Positions 546 through 39,480 of a DNA stretch of 40,050 nt are shown piece by piece (position 1 is the stretch's first letter; every line of letters begins with the position of its first letter). This stretch comes from Escherichia phage vB_Eco_D226, in the sequence record MN080711.1; one strand, written 5' to 3'. The notes below the pieces were generated by a model. The model worked only from the letters and a program-made list of their open reading frames with translations, was not told the DNA's origin and did not search any database. The position numbers were made by a program, and so were the translations under genes.

Positions 546-992
546 TCACTTTACGTGCATATTTAGTTTACCCTCACGAGCCTTCTTGACCCACTGGATG
601 TTTACTCCAAGTTTCTTAGCCACTTCAGCGTCTGTACCGTCAGCCGAGAGTACGGCATTTAGTCTCTTATCAAACGCCTGTTGAACCTTCTCGGCGTGAC
701 TCAGGCGCGTACCAGAGGCACCTCCACGAATCATTCGGCCTTTAGTCCTACAGTCCTCAATGTTCTCTTTCTGTGTTCCCTCAGATAAGTGCGCTGGGTT
801 AACACACGCAGGGTTGTCACAGGAGTGCATCACCACACATCCTTCCTTTAAGGGACGCTTTAGGTGGACTGACAGTGCGTATCGATGTGCCATCCAATGA
901 ACACCATCAACACGAATCCTGCCATACCCACCTTTAGTCTTACACCCTTGGAAGATGTGGCAACCAGTTATACTATCAATTGCCACTCTCAT
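546..992 (-). CDS. HNH endonuclease (putative homing endonuclease), 148 aa
   Basis: Motif VMHSCDNPACVNPAHL...N typical of HNH nucleases; start MRVAIDSITGC with AGGAGGT 6 nt upstream; the ORF-track N-terminal extension overlapping gene 19 was trimmed. Confidence 0.8.
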   Translation of the reverse strand: MRVAIDSITGCHIFQGCKTKGGYGRIRVDGVHWMAHRYALSVHLKRPLKEGCVVMHSCDNPACVNPAHLSEGTQKENIEDCRTKGRMIRGGASGTRLSHAEKVQQAFDKRLNAVLSADGTDAEVAKKLGVNIQWVKKAREGKLNMHVK

Positions 993-1014
993 TATATACC
1001 TCCTATTATCTATA

Positions 1015-2775
1015 TTACCACTCAATGAAGCAGCTAGAGTCTCCATCGTCCTCATAGTAGATGTCCACGCCACCAACATCGTAGCTATGGATAGCATCGC
1101 CACCAATGGTCTGTTTCTCCATGTGATGTTCAAGGAACTCAAGAGTCATCTCTTCCTCACCGATACGACTGTCTACAAGCATCCCCTCGCGTAGCCATTC
1201 GATACCCAATGCGATAGCATCAAGTCGGTCATCGTGTGCCACAGCGCCTCGCTCACGAGTCATACGGGTCATCTGATAGAACGCACTGTAGCGAACATCA
1301 TGTTTCCCATCAAGGTCACGAGCAGTCTGGTAGTCCTCACGGATAACCTCATCACGAATGACCAGCTTGTGCGCACCCATCAACGGTTCGATAGTATCGC
1401 AGATTCGCATCTCCTTCATGCCTTTAGCACGGATTTCCTCTAAGGCACACTTGTGGTGCTTCAGGAGAATCGGAGAGAAAATCTTACCGAACATACCATC
1501 ACCGAAGTTGGACTCGTGGACGACTGTCTGTACCTTCCACTGCTTGGCCTTCTTAGCGAGCTTCTCTAGGGTAGCATCATCGTAACCACCACGGAACCCA
1601 CCGACTTCCATCAAGTAGATATAACCGTTAAGTGAGTAGAGGACTGCATACCCGGTCTCATCCTTACCACGACCACTTGGGTCAATGACCAGAATCTTAG
1701 ACTGATACTCAGCGGTACGAGAAGAGCACGTATGGAACGCATGGATGTCATCACCCTTCAGACCAACGTTAGGGAGTTCCTCATTGCGGTTCTGACGGTT
1801 CGGCAACCACTGGTAAGACAATGGGGCACGTTCGGGGTCCACAGCGCACACGATAGCATCACGGAGTCGTAGCGGGTACTTCTCGGCATCACTAAGGTTC
1901 GGGTTAAGCATGAACTGAAGCGTGTAGCCAGCTTTACCATATTCGAGTTCACGCTCACGGAGGTCATCCATGTCGAATCGAATAGGGTCAGTAGGTTGTC
2001 CACGAAGAATCTCGTAGCCTTCATCATATTCAGCCTTAAGCATCGGAGCCAAGCGGTCCCCATAGTAGAGAGCCTCAGCGTCATTACGTGGATACTGTGC
2101 AGGCCAGATTACAGTGCTGTACCCTTTGTTATCCTCAAGTTCCTTGTAGAGCGTCATCTCGGTTTGAGGTGTGCCAAGGTAGATAACACGAGAGGTAGGC
2201 AGTGGCTTAAGTAATGCAGCAAACTCAGTTACCAACGTCCAGAGCTTCTCACGGGCAGAACTCGTAGAGCTATTACCGGGAACCTCAACGTCATCTGCGA
2301 TGATGATGTCAGCACGGCTACCAGTTAACTGACCAGTGATACCCACAGACTTCACAGAGGGTGAGTGGTCAGGTTTAGCTAATCCAACGTCGAAGCTAAT
2401 CACGGAGTCACGCTGTCCCGGTCGAGGTTTCAACTCAGCGAGGAATGGCAGCAGGTCAATGATGTTCTTGATGAAGATGGAGTTAGCATCCGCACGTTCC
2501 TTAGAGGCAGACACTATGAGCACCTTAAGTTGAGGGTCACGCCATAAGACCCACACGACGAACGCACAGGTGATAAAGGACTTGCCGATACCACGGAACG
2601 CCTGAAGGATAAACTTCTTGTGGTCGCCGTTAGCGAGTGTACGTGCCATATCAATCTGACACTTGGTTGGTTTAGGTAAGTTCAGAGCCTTCCATAAGAC
2701 GAACAGGAAGGCCACGAAGTCACCCTTAAGTTGCGCAATGATTAATGCGTTCTTAGCTCCTTGGGATTGTGACAT
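1015..2775 (-). CDS. 19: Terminase large subunit (gp19)
   Basis: 586 aa, same length and strong similarity to T7 gp19 as recalled; last structural gene in T7 order. Confidence 0.97.
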
Positions 2776-3221
2776 TACTTAGCCTCCTTCTTAGTTTGCA
2801 TTTCTTTGATTGTACCTTGGAGCGCACGAATCCACGCATCCCCTCTTTGAGTTACTCCGATAAGACGCTTACTAAACTCTTCGTCAAGTTCGGCTCGACC
2901 ATCAACGAGGCATCCACCGTTATCTTGGAGTTCTCGTGAGGTGGCTGATAGTTTGACGCGCAAGCGCTTACCATCGTTACGCAAATCATTAATGACCCTA
3001 TCAGTGCTGCCTTCCAGCGCCGCAAGGTCTTCTTGGTATTGCTGTGAGATTTCGTTGATAGCAGCCTGTTTATCCGCAGTCGCCTCAACCTTCTTAACGT
3101 ACTCATTGTGCACCTCCTGTTCCCATTTAGTGTTAGCTTTGTCATAGCCGTGGTTATACGCAAGGGTAATTCCCAAGGCAAACGCAGCGATTATGGCGTA
3201 GCTCTTTAAATTCTTGAGCAT
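2775..3221 (-). CDS. 18.5: i-spanin (gp18.5, Rz-like)
   Basis: 148 aa, N-terminal TM segment followed by charged coiled coil; position between genes 18 and 19. Confidence 0.9.
2852..3106 (-). CDS. 18.7: o-spanin lipoprotein (gp18.7, Rz1-like) embedded in gene 18.5
   Basis: Alternate frame inside 18.5; [10 protein letters not shown]... with lipobox-like MVSAC and C-terminal SLMVEPNLT matching T7 gp18.7; start trimmed from the ORF track. Confidence 0.8.
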   Translation of the reverse strand: MSTLRRLRRLRINRLLSTKSHSNTKKTLRRWKAALIGSLMICVTMVSACASNYQPPHENSKITVDASLMVEPNLTKSLVSVLSE

Positions 3222-21319: not shown

Positions 21320-21367
21320 TAATATTCTCCTTAAAGTTAAACTTAAAGTAGGTATCATATAGGCACC

Positions 21368-21390
21368 CCTCTCAATAGTGAGTCGTATTG
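21368..21390 (-). promoter_or_regulatory. Phage RNAP promoter phi6.5
   Basis: Reverse strand CAATACGACTCACTATTGAGAGG. Confidence 0.8.
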
Positions 21391-30982: not shown

Positions 30983-31005
30983 TTCCTCCATAGTGAGTCT
31001 AATAG
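30983..31005 (-). promoter_or_regulatory. Phage promoter-like element (phi1.5 position), divergent
   Basis: Reverse strand CTATTAGACTCACTATGGAGGAA; mismatches at -17, -16, -13, -12. Confidence 0.4.
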
Positions 31006-31466
31006 ATGTGATTTCGAACATCCACTGCTTCCTCAAGTGTCCCGTATGTTCCATGAGACTTACCATTGATTCTCACAATAAAGTGTCCAGTTCTTTTGCA
31101 GGTGTGGATGTGGCGCGTTCCAGATTTGGACTGCTTTGGTACATTTCTGTTATACCCATTCTGGCTACGAGTTACCAACCGAAGATTCTCTATCCTATTA
31201 TTGGAAGGGTTTCTATCTATATGGTCTATCTCAAGCCCATCAGGTATTGCTCCAAAGTTTAGAATCCACACCAGCCTGTGTACCTGTATGTTCTTCTTCT
31301 CATGTTGCGTAGACCAGTACCCATCTTTTCTTAGAGTACCGCAGGGCTTTCCAGAACGCGAAAAGACCAACCCCGAAGGGCTGGCCTGATTGTATTTATA
31401 TTTTCTCGCATGGATTGCTTTCTGTTCCACGGAACATTTCGAAGGAAGGGTGACGCAACGAGCCAT
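30999..31466 (-). CDS. HNH homing endonuclease (HNH_3-type with C-terminal AP2-like DNA-binding region), 155 aa
   Basis: Motif EIDHIDRNPSNNRIENLRLVTRSQN; GGAGG 6 nt upstream of ATG; the 5' end overlaps the last ~70 nt of the ligase gene. Confidence 0.85.
   Translation of the reverse strand: MARCVTLPSKCSVEQKAIHARKYKYNQASPSGLVFSRSGKPCGTLRKDGYWSTQHEKKNIQVHRLVWILNFGAIPDGLEIDHIDRNPSNNRIENLRLVTRSQNGYNRNVPKQSKSGTRHIHTCKRTGHFIVRINGKSHGTYGTLEEAVDVRNHIY
31357..31384 (-). terminator. Intrinsic terminator-like hairpin just after the ligase stop (TE position), inside the HNH coding sequence
   Basis: Transcript CCAGCCC-UUCG-GGGUUGG followed by UCUUUUCG; T7 carries the early host-RNAP terminator TE immediately after gene 1.3. 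Confidence 0.45.
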
Positions 31467-32948: not shown

Positions 32949-32984
32949 AGTGTTGTTTCCTTCTGTGTATGTATAGTTTGTTGA

Positions 32985-33032
32985 CAGTTAATCATGAAGG
33001 CCATCAGAAGTGATGACCTTGAGTTTAACTTT
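32985..33032 (-). promoter_or_regulatory. RNase III-like processing hairpin (R1.1 position)
   Basis: Same flank-stem-flank architecture (gttaatcatgaaggccatc...gatgaccttgagtttaac) as the other family members. Confidence 0.45.
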
Positions 33033-33037
33033 CAGTG

Positions 33038-33060
33038 TTTCCCATTAGTGAGTCGTATTG
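33038..33060 (-). promoter_or_regulatory. Phage RNAP promoter phi1.1B
   Basis: Reverse strand CAATACGACTCACTAATGGGAAA. Confidence 0.75.
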
Positions 33061-33602
33061 TCTGCAACCTTACGTGCAATCTCAATGCGACCCGCTACGT
33101 CTTTCTTATAATAGGTGAACTCTTTGCGCTCACCGTCAGTGCACGTCTGTGTCAGCAGATAGCGGTCGTCTTGTTCCACCCAATGTAGGCAAGTGACTTG
33201 CTTACCACATGAGCCAAGACCCAGCTTGAACTCAGTGCGCTTCCATCCAGCATCCGGGATGTGAGCAGTAAACTTGATAGACGTGATGTCACTGTGAGTG
33301 TACTCACGGATGGTACTCTTTGCCTCTTTAAGTTCCTTGCGGTACTCCACTGCCTCAGCGCGTAGACGCTCAATGAGTTCTCGTTGGTTCGACATGTCAT
33401 ATTGTTGCTCGAACTCTAAGGTACGGATTCGACCAGCTAGTTCCTGCTTCTCTCGCCACCCATCTTCAAGTCTCTCTTTGAGTGCATGAGAGTTCTTCTC
33501 TTCTTTGATTAGCTTAGTGAGAAATACCTTTGAACGATTATAATATGTTGCTGCAAGAATGGTTGATACGAGAGCGCCTACTGAAGTGATTAAAGTAAAC
33601 AT
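33045..33602 (-). CDS. Hypothetical membrane-anchored coiled-coil protein (185 aa), no T7 counterpart
   Basis: N-terminal hydrophobic segment MFTLITSVGALVSTILAATYY, then a ~70-aa charged heptad-like region, then a C-terminal domain with three Cys; AAGAGGAAACA RBS 7 nt upstream; sits between phi1.1A and phi1.1B where T7 has only non-coding origin sequence. Confidence 0.8.
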   Translation of the reverse strand: MFTLITSVGALVSTILAATYYNRSKVFLTKLIKEEKNSHALKERLEDGWREKQELAGRIRTLEFEQQYDMSNQRELIERLRAEAVEYRKELKEAKSTIREYTHSDITSIKFTAHIPDAGWKRTEFKLGLGSCGKQVTCLHWVEQDDRYLLTQTCTDGERKEFTYYKKDVAGRIEIARKVADNTTH

Positions 33603-33661
33603 GATTGTGTTTCCTCTTAAAGTTAGAACTTAAAGTATCTTAAAGTTTAGGAAGCCCGAAG

Positions 33662-33684
33662 GCTCCCAATAGTGAGTCGTATTA
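33662..33684 (-). promoter_or_regulatory. Phage RNAP promoter phi1.1A
   Basis: Reverse strand TAATACGACTCACTATTGGGAGC; transcript starts with a GGGAGCC-UUCG-GGCUUCC hairpin. Confidence 0.8.
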
Positions 33685-33691
33685 GATTCCG

Positions 33692-36343
33692 TTAGGCAAA
33701 CGCAAAGTCTGACTTAAGGATTTCTTGCAGGTCCAGAGAACCTTTAGCTGGCATCTCAGGCATCTGGTCAAGCTGCGATTCGTGTAACTGGTCAGCAAAT
33801 TGCTCATAGAAGTCTGCGAGTACATCGTTTTCTTCATAGGTGTTCACCATCGTTTCACGCACTGCTTTAAACAGGTTGCCAGCATCAGCAGGGATAGTAC
33901 CAAAGGAGTCGTGAATCAGTGCGAACGATTCCACACCGTAGACCTCATTGGAGCGGACCACAGTCATGCGCAGGTGGCTTCCATCCATTGAGTGAACAAA
34001 GTTAGGTGCGATACCTGACTCCTGCTTACGTGCATCAATGCCGCTATCCTTGTTGGTGTTCACGGTAGGCTGTAGACGAATCTGGCCTAAGAACATCAGG
34101 TTCAAGCGGGTCTGTACTGGCTTCTTGTATTCCTGCCAGACCGGGAAGCCATCAGGAGTAACCCAATGTACCGCACAGCGCTTACGGAGAACCTCTTTGG
34201 TCTTCTTGTCCTTGACTTCAGCAGCCAGAAGTTTAGCGGCAGACTTCAACCAGTTCATCGCTTCAACCGCTGCGACAACTGTGACCGTTACAGCGTTCCA
34301 AATCAGTTTAGCCATGTAGCCAGCCGCTTGGTTCGGTTGAGTGAACATCAAGCCCTTGCCATCGTCGATAGCTGGCTGAATGATGTCCTCAAGAACTTGG
34401 TCGCGGAAGCCATACTCTTTGGAGCCGTAAGCCAACGTCATGACCGAACGCTTAGTGACCTTGCGAGTCACACCGTAGGCCAGCCACTGACCAGCTAACT
34501 CTTTCGTTCCCAGCTTGAGCTTCTCAGTGATTTCACCAGTGTCCTTGTTTGTCACGGTTTCCACTTCGTTATCAGTGCCATTGATTACCGCTTCGCGGAG
34601 CATCTCGTTCACACGTTCGGCAACGATGCGATAGATGTCTTGTACTTCCTTGCTTGGCAGCAGGTTAACCGCACGCCCACCGACTTCATCGCGGAGCATT
34701 GCAGAGAAGTGCTGAATACCAGAGCAAGAGCCATCGAACGCCAGCGGCAGAGAGCAGTTGTAGTGCATACCGTGGTGTTGCACACCTGCATACTCAAAGC
34801 AGAATGCTAGGAAGCAGAACGGAGAATCTTGTTCAGCCCACCAAGTGTTAGCAATCGGGTCAGCAGCAACGCTCATGATGTTCTCGTGGTTGTCATCAAT
34901 GAACTTGATGCGTTCTGCAAAGTCCACCTTGTCCACGCCAGCAGTGTTAGCACCGTGAATCTTCAGCCAGTAGTACCCATCGACACCAATCGGTTTACCC
35001 TTAGCCAAGGTCAGCAGCCCTTTGGTCATGTCGTTGCCTTGCGGGTTAAACATTGGGACTGCATACACACGACCGCGCCAGTCCATGTTCATTGGGAACC
35101 AGATAGCTTTGAACTGTGCGAACTTATTGGCCTGACCTAACATGAACTCCATGCTCATGCGGCGTGACACTCGTGCCTTCTCTTTGCGATAGATTGCGGA
35201 GGCCGCTTTCTTCCACGCTTTCAGAGCCGCTTCGTTCGTGTCGATGTCTTCAGGTTTGACCGGGAGTTCCCCACGTTCGAGAGCAGGTACATCGTCAACC
35301 GGGCAATGCTTCCAGTTCACAATCTCGTTGACCACTGCCAGAACCTTCTTGTTAATCTTCCAAGGTGTATTCTGTGCTATGTTCACCGCCTTGTAAACTT
35401 CAGGCATGTGCACGTCGTTGTAACGCTCTAATCCCTTCTTGCTACCAGTGCGAACCAGAGAGAGAGGCTTGCGTCCAGCAGCCCAATAGCCACCACCTAC
35501 CGGAGAAGTCCAAGGCTTCGGAGGGACTACACAAGGTTGGTACATCGGAGCGATTGCAGCCAGTGCACCAGCACGTTTAGACAGCAGGTCTACATATTGT
35601 TCTGTTAACTGGATGTACTCACCATCCTTCTCAACGTTACCAGCAAACGGTCGGTGTAACTCAACGAGACCAGTAGACCCGATGAGCAGTTCCAACATGC
35701 GCACACCAACGTGAATTGATTCTTCAGGTGTCCATGTAGTCCACTTGGTTTGCAGTTGACCAGCGTCTAACATCTTGCCTTCTACAGCTTGCATGAATGC
35801 TTTCTTGTAGACGATACCAACGCGCTTGTTCAGTGCCTCCTGTACGTGGTTCTTAAAGTGCTTCGCTTCTTCGTCACGGATGCGACCAAAACGCAATTCA
35901 TCCTCAATACTGCGACCAATCTTAGTGGCGACCGATTGCAGGTTGGTGAACTCTTCTTTCGTCAAGCAAGCGAGTGTGACCTTCAGTGTGATGAAAGCAG
36001 CCGCTTCAGGTGCAACCTTCTGTACCAGATTGTAGGCTACTGGACGCTTGCCACGCTTCGCTTCCACCTCGGTGAACCAAGCGTTCCACGCCTCGATAAA
36101 CTTCGGTGCGAGAGATGACAGGAGCGGTTTAGCCACTGCGTTATCACCGAACTCACCCGCTTTGATTTGACGTTCCATTGCCTTAAGAAAACGCTTCTCA
36201 CCCTCAGTGTGCGCTTCGTGCTCAAGCTGTAACTGCGTAGCTGCAAGCTGTGCACCGTAATGGTCAGCCAGAATGTTGTATGGCATGATTGCGTTAGCGA
36301 TGTCAGAGAAGTCGTTCTTTGGTGCGTTGATTACGTTAGTCAT
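33692..36343 (-). CDS. 1: DNA-directed RNA polymerase, single-subunit (gene 1)
   Basis: 883 aa, same length as T7 RNAP; catalytic and finger motifs conserved (NMDWRGRVYAV, FCFLAFCFEY, PLAFDGSCSGIQHFSAML, RSVTKRSVMTLAYGS, FALIHDSFGT); specificity loop QPTVNTNKDSGIDARKQ keeps the T7-type Asn. Confidence 0.98.
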   Translation of the reverse strand: MTNVINAPKNDFSDIANAIMPYNILADHYGAQLAATQLQLEHEAHTEGEKRFLKAMERQIKAGEFGDNAVAKPLLSSLAPKFIEAWNAWFTEVEAKRGKRPVAYNLVQKVAPEAAAFITLKVTLACLTKEEFTNLQSVATKIGRSIEDELRFGRIRDEEAKHFKNHVQEALNKRVGIVYKKAFMQAVEGKMLDAGQLQTKWTTWTPEESIHVGVRMLELLIGSTGLVELHRPFAGNVEKDGEYIQLTEQYVDLLSKRAGALAAIAPMYQPCVVPPKPWTSPVGGGYWAAGRKPLSLVRTGSKKGLERYNDVHMPEVYKAVNIAQNTPWKINKKVLAVVNEIVNWKHCPVDDVPALERGELPVKPEDIDTNEAALKAWKKAASAIYRKEKARVSRRMSMEFMLGQANKFAQFKAIWFPMNMDWRGRVYAVPMFNPQGNDMTKGLLTLAKGKPIGVDGYYWLKIHGANTAGVDKVDFAERIKFIDDNHENIMSVAADPIANTWWAEQDSPFCFLAFCFEYAGVQHHGMHYNCSLPLAFDGSCSGIQHFSAMLRDEVGGRAVNLLPSKEVQDIYRIVAERVNEMLREAVINGTDNEVETVTNKDTGEITEKLKLGTKELAGQWLAYGVTRKVTKRSVMTLAYGSKEYGFRDQVLEDIIQPAIDDGKGLMFTQPNQAAGYMAKLIWNAVTVTVVAAVEAMNWLKSAAKLLAAEVKDKKTKEVLRKRCAVHWVTPDGFPVWQEYKKPVQTRLNLMFLGQIRLQPTVNTNKDSGIDARKQESGIAPNFVHSMDGSHLRMTVVRSNEVYGVESFALIHDSFGTIPADAGNLFKAVRETMVNTYEENDVLADFYEQFADQLHESQLDQMPEMPAKGSLDLQEILKSDFAFA

Positions 36344-39245: not shown

Positions 39246-39457
39246 CCACTTTCGTATGTCTGGTTGATGACTACTTGAGACACTTCAGCTTTACTAGATA
39301 ACTCGCGGTCTTGTCTAGTAGTTGGTAGCGTTGTGTCTCTCAACGGTCGCTATAGTCTCATAGCTGTTTCTTAGAGTCAATACTTAAAGTAACAAATAAT
39401 CGTCTTTAAGTGTCTTTAAGTTATCCCTATAAGGAATGGGAATAGTAATAGACACTC

Positions 39458-39480
39458 ATCCTCAATAGTGAGTCATATTA
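39458..39480 (-). promoter_or_regulatory. Phage RNAP promoter phiOL
   Basis: Reverse strand TAATATGACTCACTATTGAGGAT near the left end. Confidence 0.65.

Follow-up and report, generated by a model that had tools for sequence, protein, structure and literature searches.

Gene 1.05 of a BA14-like T7-group phage: a long form of the T3 gp1.05 family beside a probable replication origin

Gene 1.05 was first annotated in phage T3 (record X05031), where promoter phi1.05 (105-120), the inverted repeat A/A', the primary replication origin (145-221), gene 1.05 itself (180-452), promoter phi1.1 and a potential RNase III stem-loop follow one another. The T3 origin extends into the gene, taking in its ribosome-binding site and first 14 codons. 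The BA14 orthologue lies between phi1.05 and phi1.1 and is annotated as gene 1.05, 'fusion protein with gene 1.05'; a 'gp1.05 fusion protein' is annotated in K11 and KP32, and the Kvp1 annotation reads 'similar to C-terminus of gene 1.05 protein [T3]'. Gene 1.05 was not found in T7, and its absence from this laboratory model is probably why it has never been studied. Literature searches on gp1.05 returned mentions in annotation tables only and no characterised homologue, and the gene has no structural or functional precedent. Here, we compare these systems with gene 1.05 of the window, by which we mean the whole 40,050-nucleotide stretch of DNA that was analysed.

Identity and genomic setting of gene 1.05

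The 185-residue open reading frame proposed in an earlier note on this DNA was confirmed, with an ATG start (Table 1), and it truly encodes a protein, on which purifying selection acts. Compared with close relatives, its dN/dS values are 0.02-0.28. In codon alignments of the window gene with 13 Berlinvirus relatives, analysed by the Nei-Gojobori method (NG86), comparisons within one allelic type gave omega values of 0.00-0.28 over codons 1-102 and 0.02-0.13 over codons 103-180. The 3' half of the gene reaches dS values of 0.5-0.96 with dN of only 0.04-0.09; therefore, the conservation of the C-terminal part reflects constraint on the protein, and a DNA-level constraint imposed by the origin is ruled out as its source.

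The assignment of this protein to gene 1.05 and PF25755 is practically certain. Pfam PF25755 (Phage_T3_1_05, 'Enterobacteria phage T3 gene 1.05 protein') matches residues 106-176 with E=1.4e-29 and 102.3 bits, against a gathering cut-off of 27, and the match covers profile positions 2-72 of 73. PHROG 8103 (E=2.5e-62) and PHROG 6440 are matched too, both annotated as of unknown function. All 12 invariant columns of the family signature, F...LGxGxCGKxV...Q...K.F.Y...GR[IV]E, are present in the window protein, and the signature is likewise found in distant single-domain members. The DNA of the locus is 99.5% identical to that of Enterobacter phage vB_SEqdws-315 and 95.7% identical to that of BA14 (Berlinvirus), and at the protein level, annotated genes of BA14, 285P and CarlSpitteler show 95-99% identity to it. 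The reading frame is thus the long 'fusion' form of gene 1.05, and it belongs to a BA14-like T7-group phage (Berlinvirus). The novelty that the earlier note had seen in it does not hold, since the PF25755/PHROG family is annotated at the same place in T3 (X05031), BA14, Kvp1, 285P, K11 and KP32. The profile search and the comparison of the gene 1-gene 1.1 interval that the note had suggested did find a family of homologues at this position in characterised T7-like phages, but it is a family to which no function is assigned. What appeared new is a known, widely conserved gene of unknown function, a distinction that is useful for triage.

The window follows the T3 order: phi1.05, a UUCG hairpin, an AT-rich stretch, gene 1.05, phi1.1 and a second hairpin. 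The RNA polymerase gene (gene 1, 33692..36343) lies upstream, and genes 1.1 (PF08200) and 1.2 (PF10922) lie downstream; the order gene 1, phi1.05, gene 1.05, phi1.1, genes 1.1 and 1.2 is the same in T3, BA14 and Kvp1. T7-type promoter cores (AATACGACTCACTA, at most one mismatch) occur 11 times in the whole window, all on the minus strand, with 0.01 expected by chance. Two of them, at 33670-33683 and 33046-33059, flank gene 1.05, as the earlier note had stated. Its labels for this pair, phi1.1A and phi1.1B, were positional and are swapped by homology. In the alignments, phi1.05 and the AT-rich stretch of the window match the T3 origin and T7 phi1.1B with its AT-rich region, and phi1.1 of the window (CAATACGACTCAC...) and the following hairpin match the T3 phi1.1/RNase III stem-loop and T7 phi1.1A/R1.1. 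The upstream promoter thus corresponds to T3 phi1.05 and T7 phi1.1B, and the downstream promoter to T7 phi1.1A. The same alignments contradict the proposal that the gene was inserted into a T7-like origin between phi1.1A and phi1.1B. Instead, the T7 origin region is a rearranged version, lacking gene 1.05, of an arrangement common to T3, BA14 and K11.

Gene 1.05 is transcribed from the phage promoter phi1.05. The AT-rich element that follows this promoter has a GC content of 0.26-0.30 in 50-nt windows and includes both the ribosome-binding site and the start of the coding sequence. Its homology to T3 makes it the probable primary replication origin; the AT-rich leader and first codons of gene 1.05 coincide with what is annotated as the primary origin in T3. 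The gene has a ribosome-binding site of its own, as had been claimed, but at a spacing of 10 nt (GAGG to ATG) and not 7 nt. At the other end, the final four codons (NTTH) and the stop codon are shared with phi1.1. The hairpin downstream of phi1.1 folds with -18.9 kcal/mol (z -4.4), a value reached by 0 of 200 shuffled sequences, and it is homologous to the potential RNase III recognition site annotated in T3; the equivalent sequence in T7 comes after phi1.1A. An Rfam scan of the locus gave no matches.

Table 1. Features of the gene 1.05 locus in window coordinates
Feature	Position	Strand	Basis
Promoter phi1.05, TAATACGACTCACTATT followed by GGGAG, +1 at 33667	33662..33684	minus	Core match, BA14/Kvp1 annotation, T3/T7 alignment
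5' hairpin of the phi1.05 transcript, GGGAGCC-UUCG-GGCUUCC	33650..33667	minus	RNA fold; counterpart of T3 inverted repeat A/A'
AT-rich element with three CTTTAAG copies (33616-33645), boundaries approximate	33580..33649	minus	GC content, motif positions, T3 alignment
Shine-Dalgarno-like AAGAGG	33613..33618	minus	Read from the sequence; GAGG to ATG 10 nt
Gene 1.05 coding sequence, 185 aa and stop	33045..33602	minus	ORF list, PF25755, annotated homologues, purifying selection
N-terminal transmembrane anchor, aa 1-21, predicted N-out/C-in	33540..33602	minus	Kyte-Doolittle, Hessa, K/R distribution
Long charged helix, aa 22-102, probable coiled coil, lineage-variable	33297..33539	minus	AlphaFold2, heptad test, divergence
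PF25755 small beta-barrel, aa 103-177, core of T3 gp1.05	33072..33296	minus	Pfam, alignments, AlphaFold2, BFVD
Promoter phi1.1, CAATACGACTCACTAAT followed by GGGAAA	33038..33060	minus	Core match, BA14/Kvp1 annotation, alignment
Stable hairpin downstream of phi1.1	32982..33034	minus	Fold, T3 annotation, alignment

Protein anatomy and the variable N-terminal module

The model obtained with AlphaFold2 from a 25-sequence alignment consists of one helix (aa 2-102, pLDDT 89-96) and a six-stranded beta domain (aa 106-177), with a mean pLDDT of 88. Modelling the domain alone gave the same six strands at a pLDDT of 83, and the fold is all-beta. At the N-terminus, the 19-residue Kyte-Doolittle mean over aa 1-19 is 1.79, above the usual threshold of 1.6, and the sum on the Hessa scale is borderline at +0.9. 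The architecture described in the earlier note is correct: a long helix lies between a membrane anchor and a C-terminal domain. The coiled-coil character that it gave to the helix is moderately supported: the heptad pattern contains one register shift, and 15 of 500 shuffles with preserved composition score at least as high. The three cysteines that it noticed in the C-terminal domain are present (positions 132, 138 and 154), but only C132 is invariant. Position 138 is A, S or C even among close relatives and position 154 is H, T or W in other genera; the feature is therefore unconserved, and a cysteine cluster, zinc site or disulfide is ruled out. In the family alignments, twelve residues of the barrel are invariant across genera (F111, G128, G130, C132, G133, V136, Q152, K160, F162, Y164, G171 and R172).

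The distribution of charges suggests how the protein is oriented. There are no K/R residues before the anchor and five after it, which by the positive-inside rule predicts an N-out/C-in topology. This pattern is shared by the TM-type relatives: 74 of 75 have no K/R before the segment, whose median starting position is residue 2, and the following 15 residues contain three K/R on average. Moreover, the family includes proteins that have neither a TM segment nor a signal peptide, and their barrels must be cytoplasmic. From the charge distribution and these soluble homologues, the barrel of the window protein is predicted to face the cytoplasm.

Sequence comparison indicates that the PF25755 barrel of about 75 residues is the sole part conserved throughout the family, and the N-terminal TM segment and long helix form a lineage-variable module. 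The 335 members that we collected show three architectures. A TM-type N-terminus is found in 88, of which 81 stop right after the barrel; a long soluble N-terminal helix is found in 116, of which 98 carry a C-terminal extension that is often Arg-rich; and the remaining form, in 131 members, is short and essentially the barrel alone. The short form is represented by the T3 protein (CAA28697), which occupies the same gene 1-gene 1.1 slot with the same phi1.05/phi1.1 pair and an AT-rich origin element at the start of the gene. Its barrel is homologous to that of the window protein; the two domains align with 42% identity and have the invariant motif in common. However, T3 gp1.05 has only 90 residues, the barrel being preceded by a short AT-encoded peptide, whereas the window protein has a 100-residue TM-plus-coil module in front.

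The long forms are compared as follows. The gp1.05 proteins of BA14, 285P, Kvp1 and CarlSpitteler (Berlinvirus) are encoded by the same gene, with 95-99% identity over all 185 residues, the same architecture and the same flanking promoters, and they differ from the window protein by a few substitutions. The 186-residue 'fusion protein' of K11 and KP32 (Przondovirus) has the same position and the same layout of TM segment, coil and barrel; however, about 37-39% of the residues are identical overall, the N-terminal modules can hardly be aligned and the promoters differ in specificity. The gp1.05-like proteins of about 155-170 residues in Kayfunavirus, Ningirsuvirus and Elunavirus share the barrel, the position and an N-terminal heptad helix, but they lack the TM anchor, and their C-terminus is extended by a helix and an Arg-rich tail, both absent from the window protein.

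Deeply diverged allelic types of the N-terminal module are seen in BA14, JSS1/Carena, LPST144 and PP74. Between these types, the module has dS above 1.7 and dN of 0.8-1.2, whereas the attached barrel has dN of 0.05-0.09; within one type, omega of the module is about 0.1. Positive selection on the module is unsupported, given this within-type value and between-type substitutions that are saturated and hence uninformative. The neighbouring gene 1.2 shows mosaicism comparable to that of gene 1.05; recombination is therefore general in this region and not specific to gene 1.05.

Distribution of the family and searches for a characterised relative

A tblastn search with the gene 1.05 protein matched 563 phage records. 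For comparison, an RNA polymerase with at least 60% identity is encoded in about 1257 records, and a T7-type polymerase of any kind in 2073. In each genome inspected, gene 1.05 lies between gene 1 and gene 1.1, and six genera (Teetrevirus, Przondovirus, Kayfunavirus, Ningirsuvirus, Elunavirus and Berlinvirus) all carry it in this position after gene 1. In Yep-phi-type phages, the DNA-level alignment is confined to the promoter-proximal 110 nt or so of the locus. With at least 563 sequenced phages, including those of the Klebsiella KP32 type, gene 1.05 ranks as one of the T7 group's more widespread early genes that are still uncharacterised.

Single-domain PF25755 genes were also found outside the T7 group. 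Three T5-like metagenomic contigs carry one amid small early reading frames; a T5-type dNMPase gene lies within a few kb in all three, and two of them also carry a T5-type small terminase gene. In a bacterial metagenome-assembled genome, a further PF25755 gene has an integrase gene on one side and Bro-N/KilA-N genes on the other. The barrel thus moves between unrelated mobile elements as part of their early accessory genes, which weighs against a job specific to the origin and favours a host-directed accessory role. A profile search of 1.84 billion cluster representatives gave 311 matches at E<=1e-3; all ten that were sampled are PF25755 proteins, nine of them single-domain proteins of 70-85 residues.

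Structure searches extended the family without reaching a characterised protein. In BFVD, Foldseek matched phiSG-JL2 Gp1.05 (TMq 0.85), the KP32 fusion protein (TMq 0.82) and a PP81 protein (TMq 0.89) with E values of 5e-10 to 7e-9, and the predicted fold is common to the family; the barrel gives TM-scores of 0.8-0.89, normalised to the query, with family members. The BFVD matches are uncharacterised proteins only, almost all from T7-like (Autographiviridae) phages, among them phages of Pseudomonas, Ralstonia, Aeromonas, Delftia and Vibrio and, judged by phage names, possibly SP6-like phages. The best PDB matches were antibody frameworks by sequence (E 0.097), a hit of E 0.27 by profile and the WYL domain of BrxR by Foldseek (E 0.11). 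The 185-residue protein matched no PADLOC-DB family at E<=1 and no NCBIfam model, and its matches to Pfam coiled-coil models were below their cut-offs. The macromolecule-binding small beta-barrels Sm/Hfq, WYL and SspB resemble the gp1.05 barrel weakly, with scores below the usual significance, 6-15% identity and no common motifs; this is a resemblance, and membership is not shown.

Possible roles of gp1.05

The most plausible class of function for gene 1.05 is an early accessory, host-directed role. We read the gene as accessory and dispensable because T7 lacks it, only the promoter-proximal part of the locus aligns at the DNA level in Yep-phi-type phages and 563 records carry it against about 1257 with a closely related polymerase. 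Our tentative proposal, to which we give somewhat less than an even chance, is that gp1.05 is a dispensable early protein whose cytoplasmic barrel binds a macromolecule, whose helix oligomerises and whose anchor holds the assembly at the inner membrane. The anchor would insert N-out/C-in and place the helix and barrel on the cytoplasmic side, and the helix would oligomerise gp1.05 as a coiled coil. The barrel would be the working module, binding a host or phage protein or a nucleic acid through the invariant glycine-rich GxGxCGK loop and the K-x-F-x-Y and G-R strands. In the window lineage, the ligand would be kept at the inner membrane; elsewhere in the family, the barrel would work on a soluble coiled coil or alone. 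Gene 1.05 would then be an early factor for host take-over or counter-defence and not a component of replication, lysis or the virion structure. Several observations may count against this proposal: the insertion energy of the anchor is borderline, the topology and oligomerisation are predictions, the adjacency to the origin, invariable in T7-like phages, could reflect a role linked to replication, and the invariant Cys and Lys could mean catalysis instead of binding. Taken as a whole, the identification as the long form of gene 1.05 together with this role is the best explanation, and we regard it as evenly balanced between right and wrong.

The anchor is the starting point of two other readings. 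As an early inner-membrane protein, gp1.05 might stop the genome ejection or translocation of a second, related phage, that is, act in superinfection exclusion or as a DNA-entry block, as the earlier note had suggested. The N-terminal anchor, early transcription from the first phage promoter and the deeply diverged N-terminal alleles in otherwise close phages, as expected for phage-phage conflict, agree with such a role. However, the conserved module is the cytoplasmic barrel and not the anchor, and most lineages, including T3 and the Kayfunavirus-type forms of about 155 residues, have no TM segment; a membrane-based block therefore cannot be the core function of the family. Moreover, the N-terminal part is under purifying and not diversifying selection within an allelic type, the equal mosaicism of gene 1.2 makes the divergence unspecific, and there is no PADLOC match. 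Exclusion is weakened chiefly because the conserved module works without an anchor in most lineages, and we consider it improbable. With its TM segment, its charged helix and the cysteines of its C-terminal domain, gp1.05 also bears a superficial resemblance to i-spanins (lambda Rz, T7 gp18.5; PF03245), which the earlier note had pointed out; on this reading it would be a second spanin-like or lysis-related envelope protein. i-Spanins are type II proteins, N-in with a periplasmic coiled coil and C-terminus, and are encoded with an o-spanin partner in the late lysis cassette. In contrast, the anchor predicted for gp1.05 has the reverse orientation, the gene is early and has no partner, and TM-less, soluble relatives exist. 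The canonical 18.5/18.7 pair is indeed present elsewhere in the window, as the note had said, with an i-spanin frame at 2775..3221 (minus strand) that matches PF03245 (the Rz lysis protein family). In this gp18.5, K3 and K6 precede the TM segment, and the protein shows no similarity to gp1.05 (BLASTP E=5.1). The Pfam scan of the 185-residue protein gave no PF03245 match at E<=10, and no lipobox occurs in the listed reading frames overlapping gene 1.05, hence no embedded o-spanin partner is seen. The spanin analogy is rejected on the topology, the dissimilarity to gp18.5 and the soluble homologues, and a lysis-related role is scarcely credible.

Two further readings concern the barrel. If it bound the origin DNA or the phi1.05 RNA-DNA primer, gp1.05 could be a replication accessory that, in the window lineage, tethers the initiating replisome to the membrane. 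Gene 1.05 starts inside an AT-rich element homologous to the T3 primary origin, the fold class includes the nucleic-acid binders Hfq and WYL, and some soluble gp1.05 forms have Arg-rich C-terminal tails. Yet T7 replicates from a homologous origin without gene 1.05, and PF25755 genes are also carried by T5-like phages and by an integrative element, where no T7-type origin is nearby; a strong promoter and an AT-rich leader at the origin are a simpler reason for the adjacency. We hold this role to be as doubtful as exclusion. Less probable still is a small enzyme or covalent modifier of a host target or metabolite, with Cys132 of the GxGxCGK loop and K160, Y164 and R172 as the active site. The invariance of C, K, Q, Y and R residues in very divergent members would fit catalysis, and the loop is superficially like the phosphate-binding GxxxxGK motif (G128-x4-G133-K134). 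However, the residue after GK is variable (Q, E, T or V) and not the S/T of Walker A, and the predicted fold is all-beta, so that a P-loop was rejected; a barrel of about 75 residues is also small for an enzyme and has no fold match to any enzyme family.

A more specific version of host-directed binding, which we think unlikely but somewhat better than the alternatives above, is that the PF25755 barrel is a new phage-specific macromolecule-binding fold, produced within minutes of the start of infection by unrelated virulent phages, T7-like and T5-like, to capture or neutralise one host factor. This factor might be, for example, a nucleic-acid-sensing defence component, a nucleoid protein or a membrane-associated protein. 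The TM anchor, the soluble coiled coil and the Arg-rich tail would then be interchangeable ways to localise or oligomerise an inhibitor, and the anchored form of the window would sequester its target at the inner membrane. Whichever ligand is bound, the modular anatomy and the occurrence in T5-like early regions make gene 1.05 a tractable candidate for host-takeover or counter-defence screens.

Promoters and gene 1.05 in the primary-origin region

We compared the two promoters of the window, phi1.05 (33662–33684) and phi1.1 (33038–33060), with those of T7 and T3. T7 phi1.1A, together with the hairpin-forming sequence that follows it, is homologous to the second promoter of the window, phi1.1, whereas the first, phi1.05, corresponds by homology to T7 phi1.1B with its AT-rich origin. 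Between phi1.1A and phi1.1B, T7 has no gene 1.05. The primary-origin region of T7 appears to be rearranged relative to T3, BA14 and the window.

The core of phi1.1 (AATACGACTCACTAA; 33045–33059) encodes the C-terminal Asn-Thr-Thr-His (NTTH) of gp1.05, the gene 1.05 product, and its stop codon. Because the NTTH terminus occurs in nearly all gp1.05 family members whose phages use a phi1.1-type promoter, the promoter dictates the tail of the protein. Both gene 1.05 and gene 1.2 show strong mosaicism across Berlinvirus. Among phages with a gene 1.1 divergence of no more than 0.1–0.4, the synonymous divergence of gene 1.2, measured against the window, spans 0.02 to 1.5, which indicates frequent recombination with breakpoints at promoter and gene boundaries.

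Anchors, extensions and distant PF25755 genes

In the gp1.05 family alignment, proteins with an N-terminal TM anchor seldom also carry the Arg-rich extension at the C-terminus (RRHRMIGRRF is one example), so that anchor and extension nearly exclude each other. The extension is absent from 81 TM forms and present in 7, while the soluble long forms carry it in 98 cases and lack it in 18. This distribution suggests that anchor and extension are alternative localisation modules, with the near-exclusion being phylogenetically confounded.

Genes of the same Pfam family, PF25755, also occur outside T7-like phages (see table). Those of L025, L026 and L027 encode products of 83–97 aa and are surrounded by small ORFs. 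A T5-type dNMPase gene lies a few kilobases or less away in all three, and a T5-type small terminase is also found on L025 and L027; no PF25755 domain was found in cultured T5-like phages within the phage collection. The gene shared by L022 and L023 is flanked on one side by a phage-type integrase and on the other by genes for Bro-N, an SLT-domain protein (1352 aa), KilA-N, NA37 and PDDEXK; this locus belongs to an integrative element whose type is unclear.

Locations of PF25755 genes and HNH homing-endonuclease ORFs
Feature	Location	Strand	Context
Single-domain PF25755 gene	L025 8001–8252		metagenomic contig
Single-domain PF25755 gene	L026 7001–7255		metagenomic contig
Single-domain PF25755 gene	L027 7001–7294		metagenomic contig
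PF25755 gene	L022 8001–8264; L023 4926–5189		bacterial metagenome-assembled contig
HNH ORF (PF13392, E 1.7e-21)	window 30999..31466	−	directly downstream of DNA ligase gene
HNH ORF (PF13392, E 1.3e-5)	window 546..1142	−	overlaps end of ORF 1015..2775

HNH ORFs and the CTTTAAG motif

The window carries two HNH homing-endonuclease ORFs. One of them overlaps a 586-aa ORF, probably the large terminase gene, close to the right end of the genome.

The window contains 28 copies of CTTTAAG, where 4.1 would be expected; the sequence may be an origin-associated motif.

One CTTTAAG cluster (33616–33645) lies closely downstream of the promoter core at 33670–33683. Another (21330–21348) lies closely downstream of the core at 21376–21389, which may be the equivalent of phi6.5, a secondary origin in T7. 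A third cluster (39383–39420) is located about 50–80 nt downstream of the left-end promoter (39466–39479).
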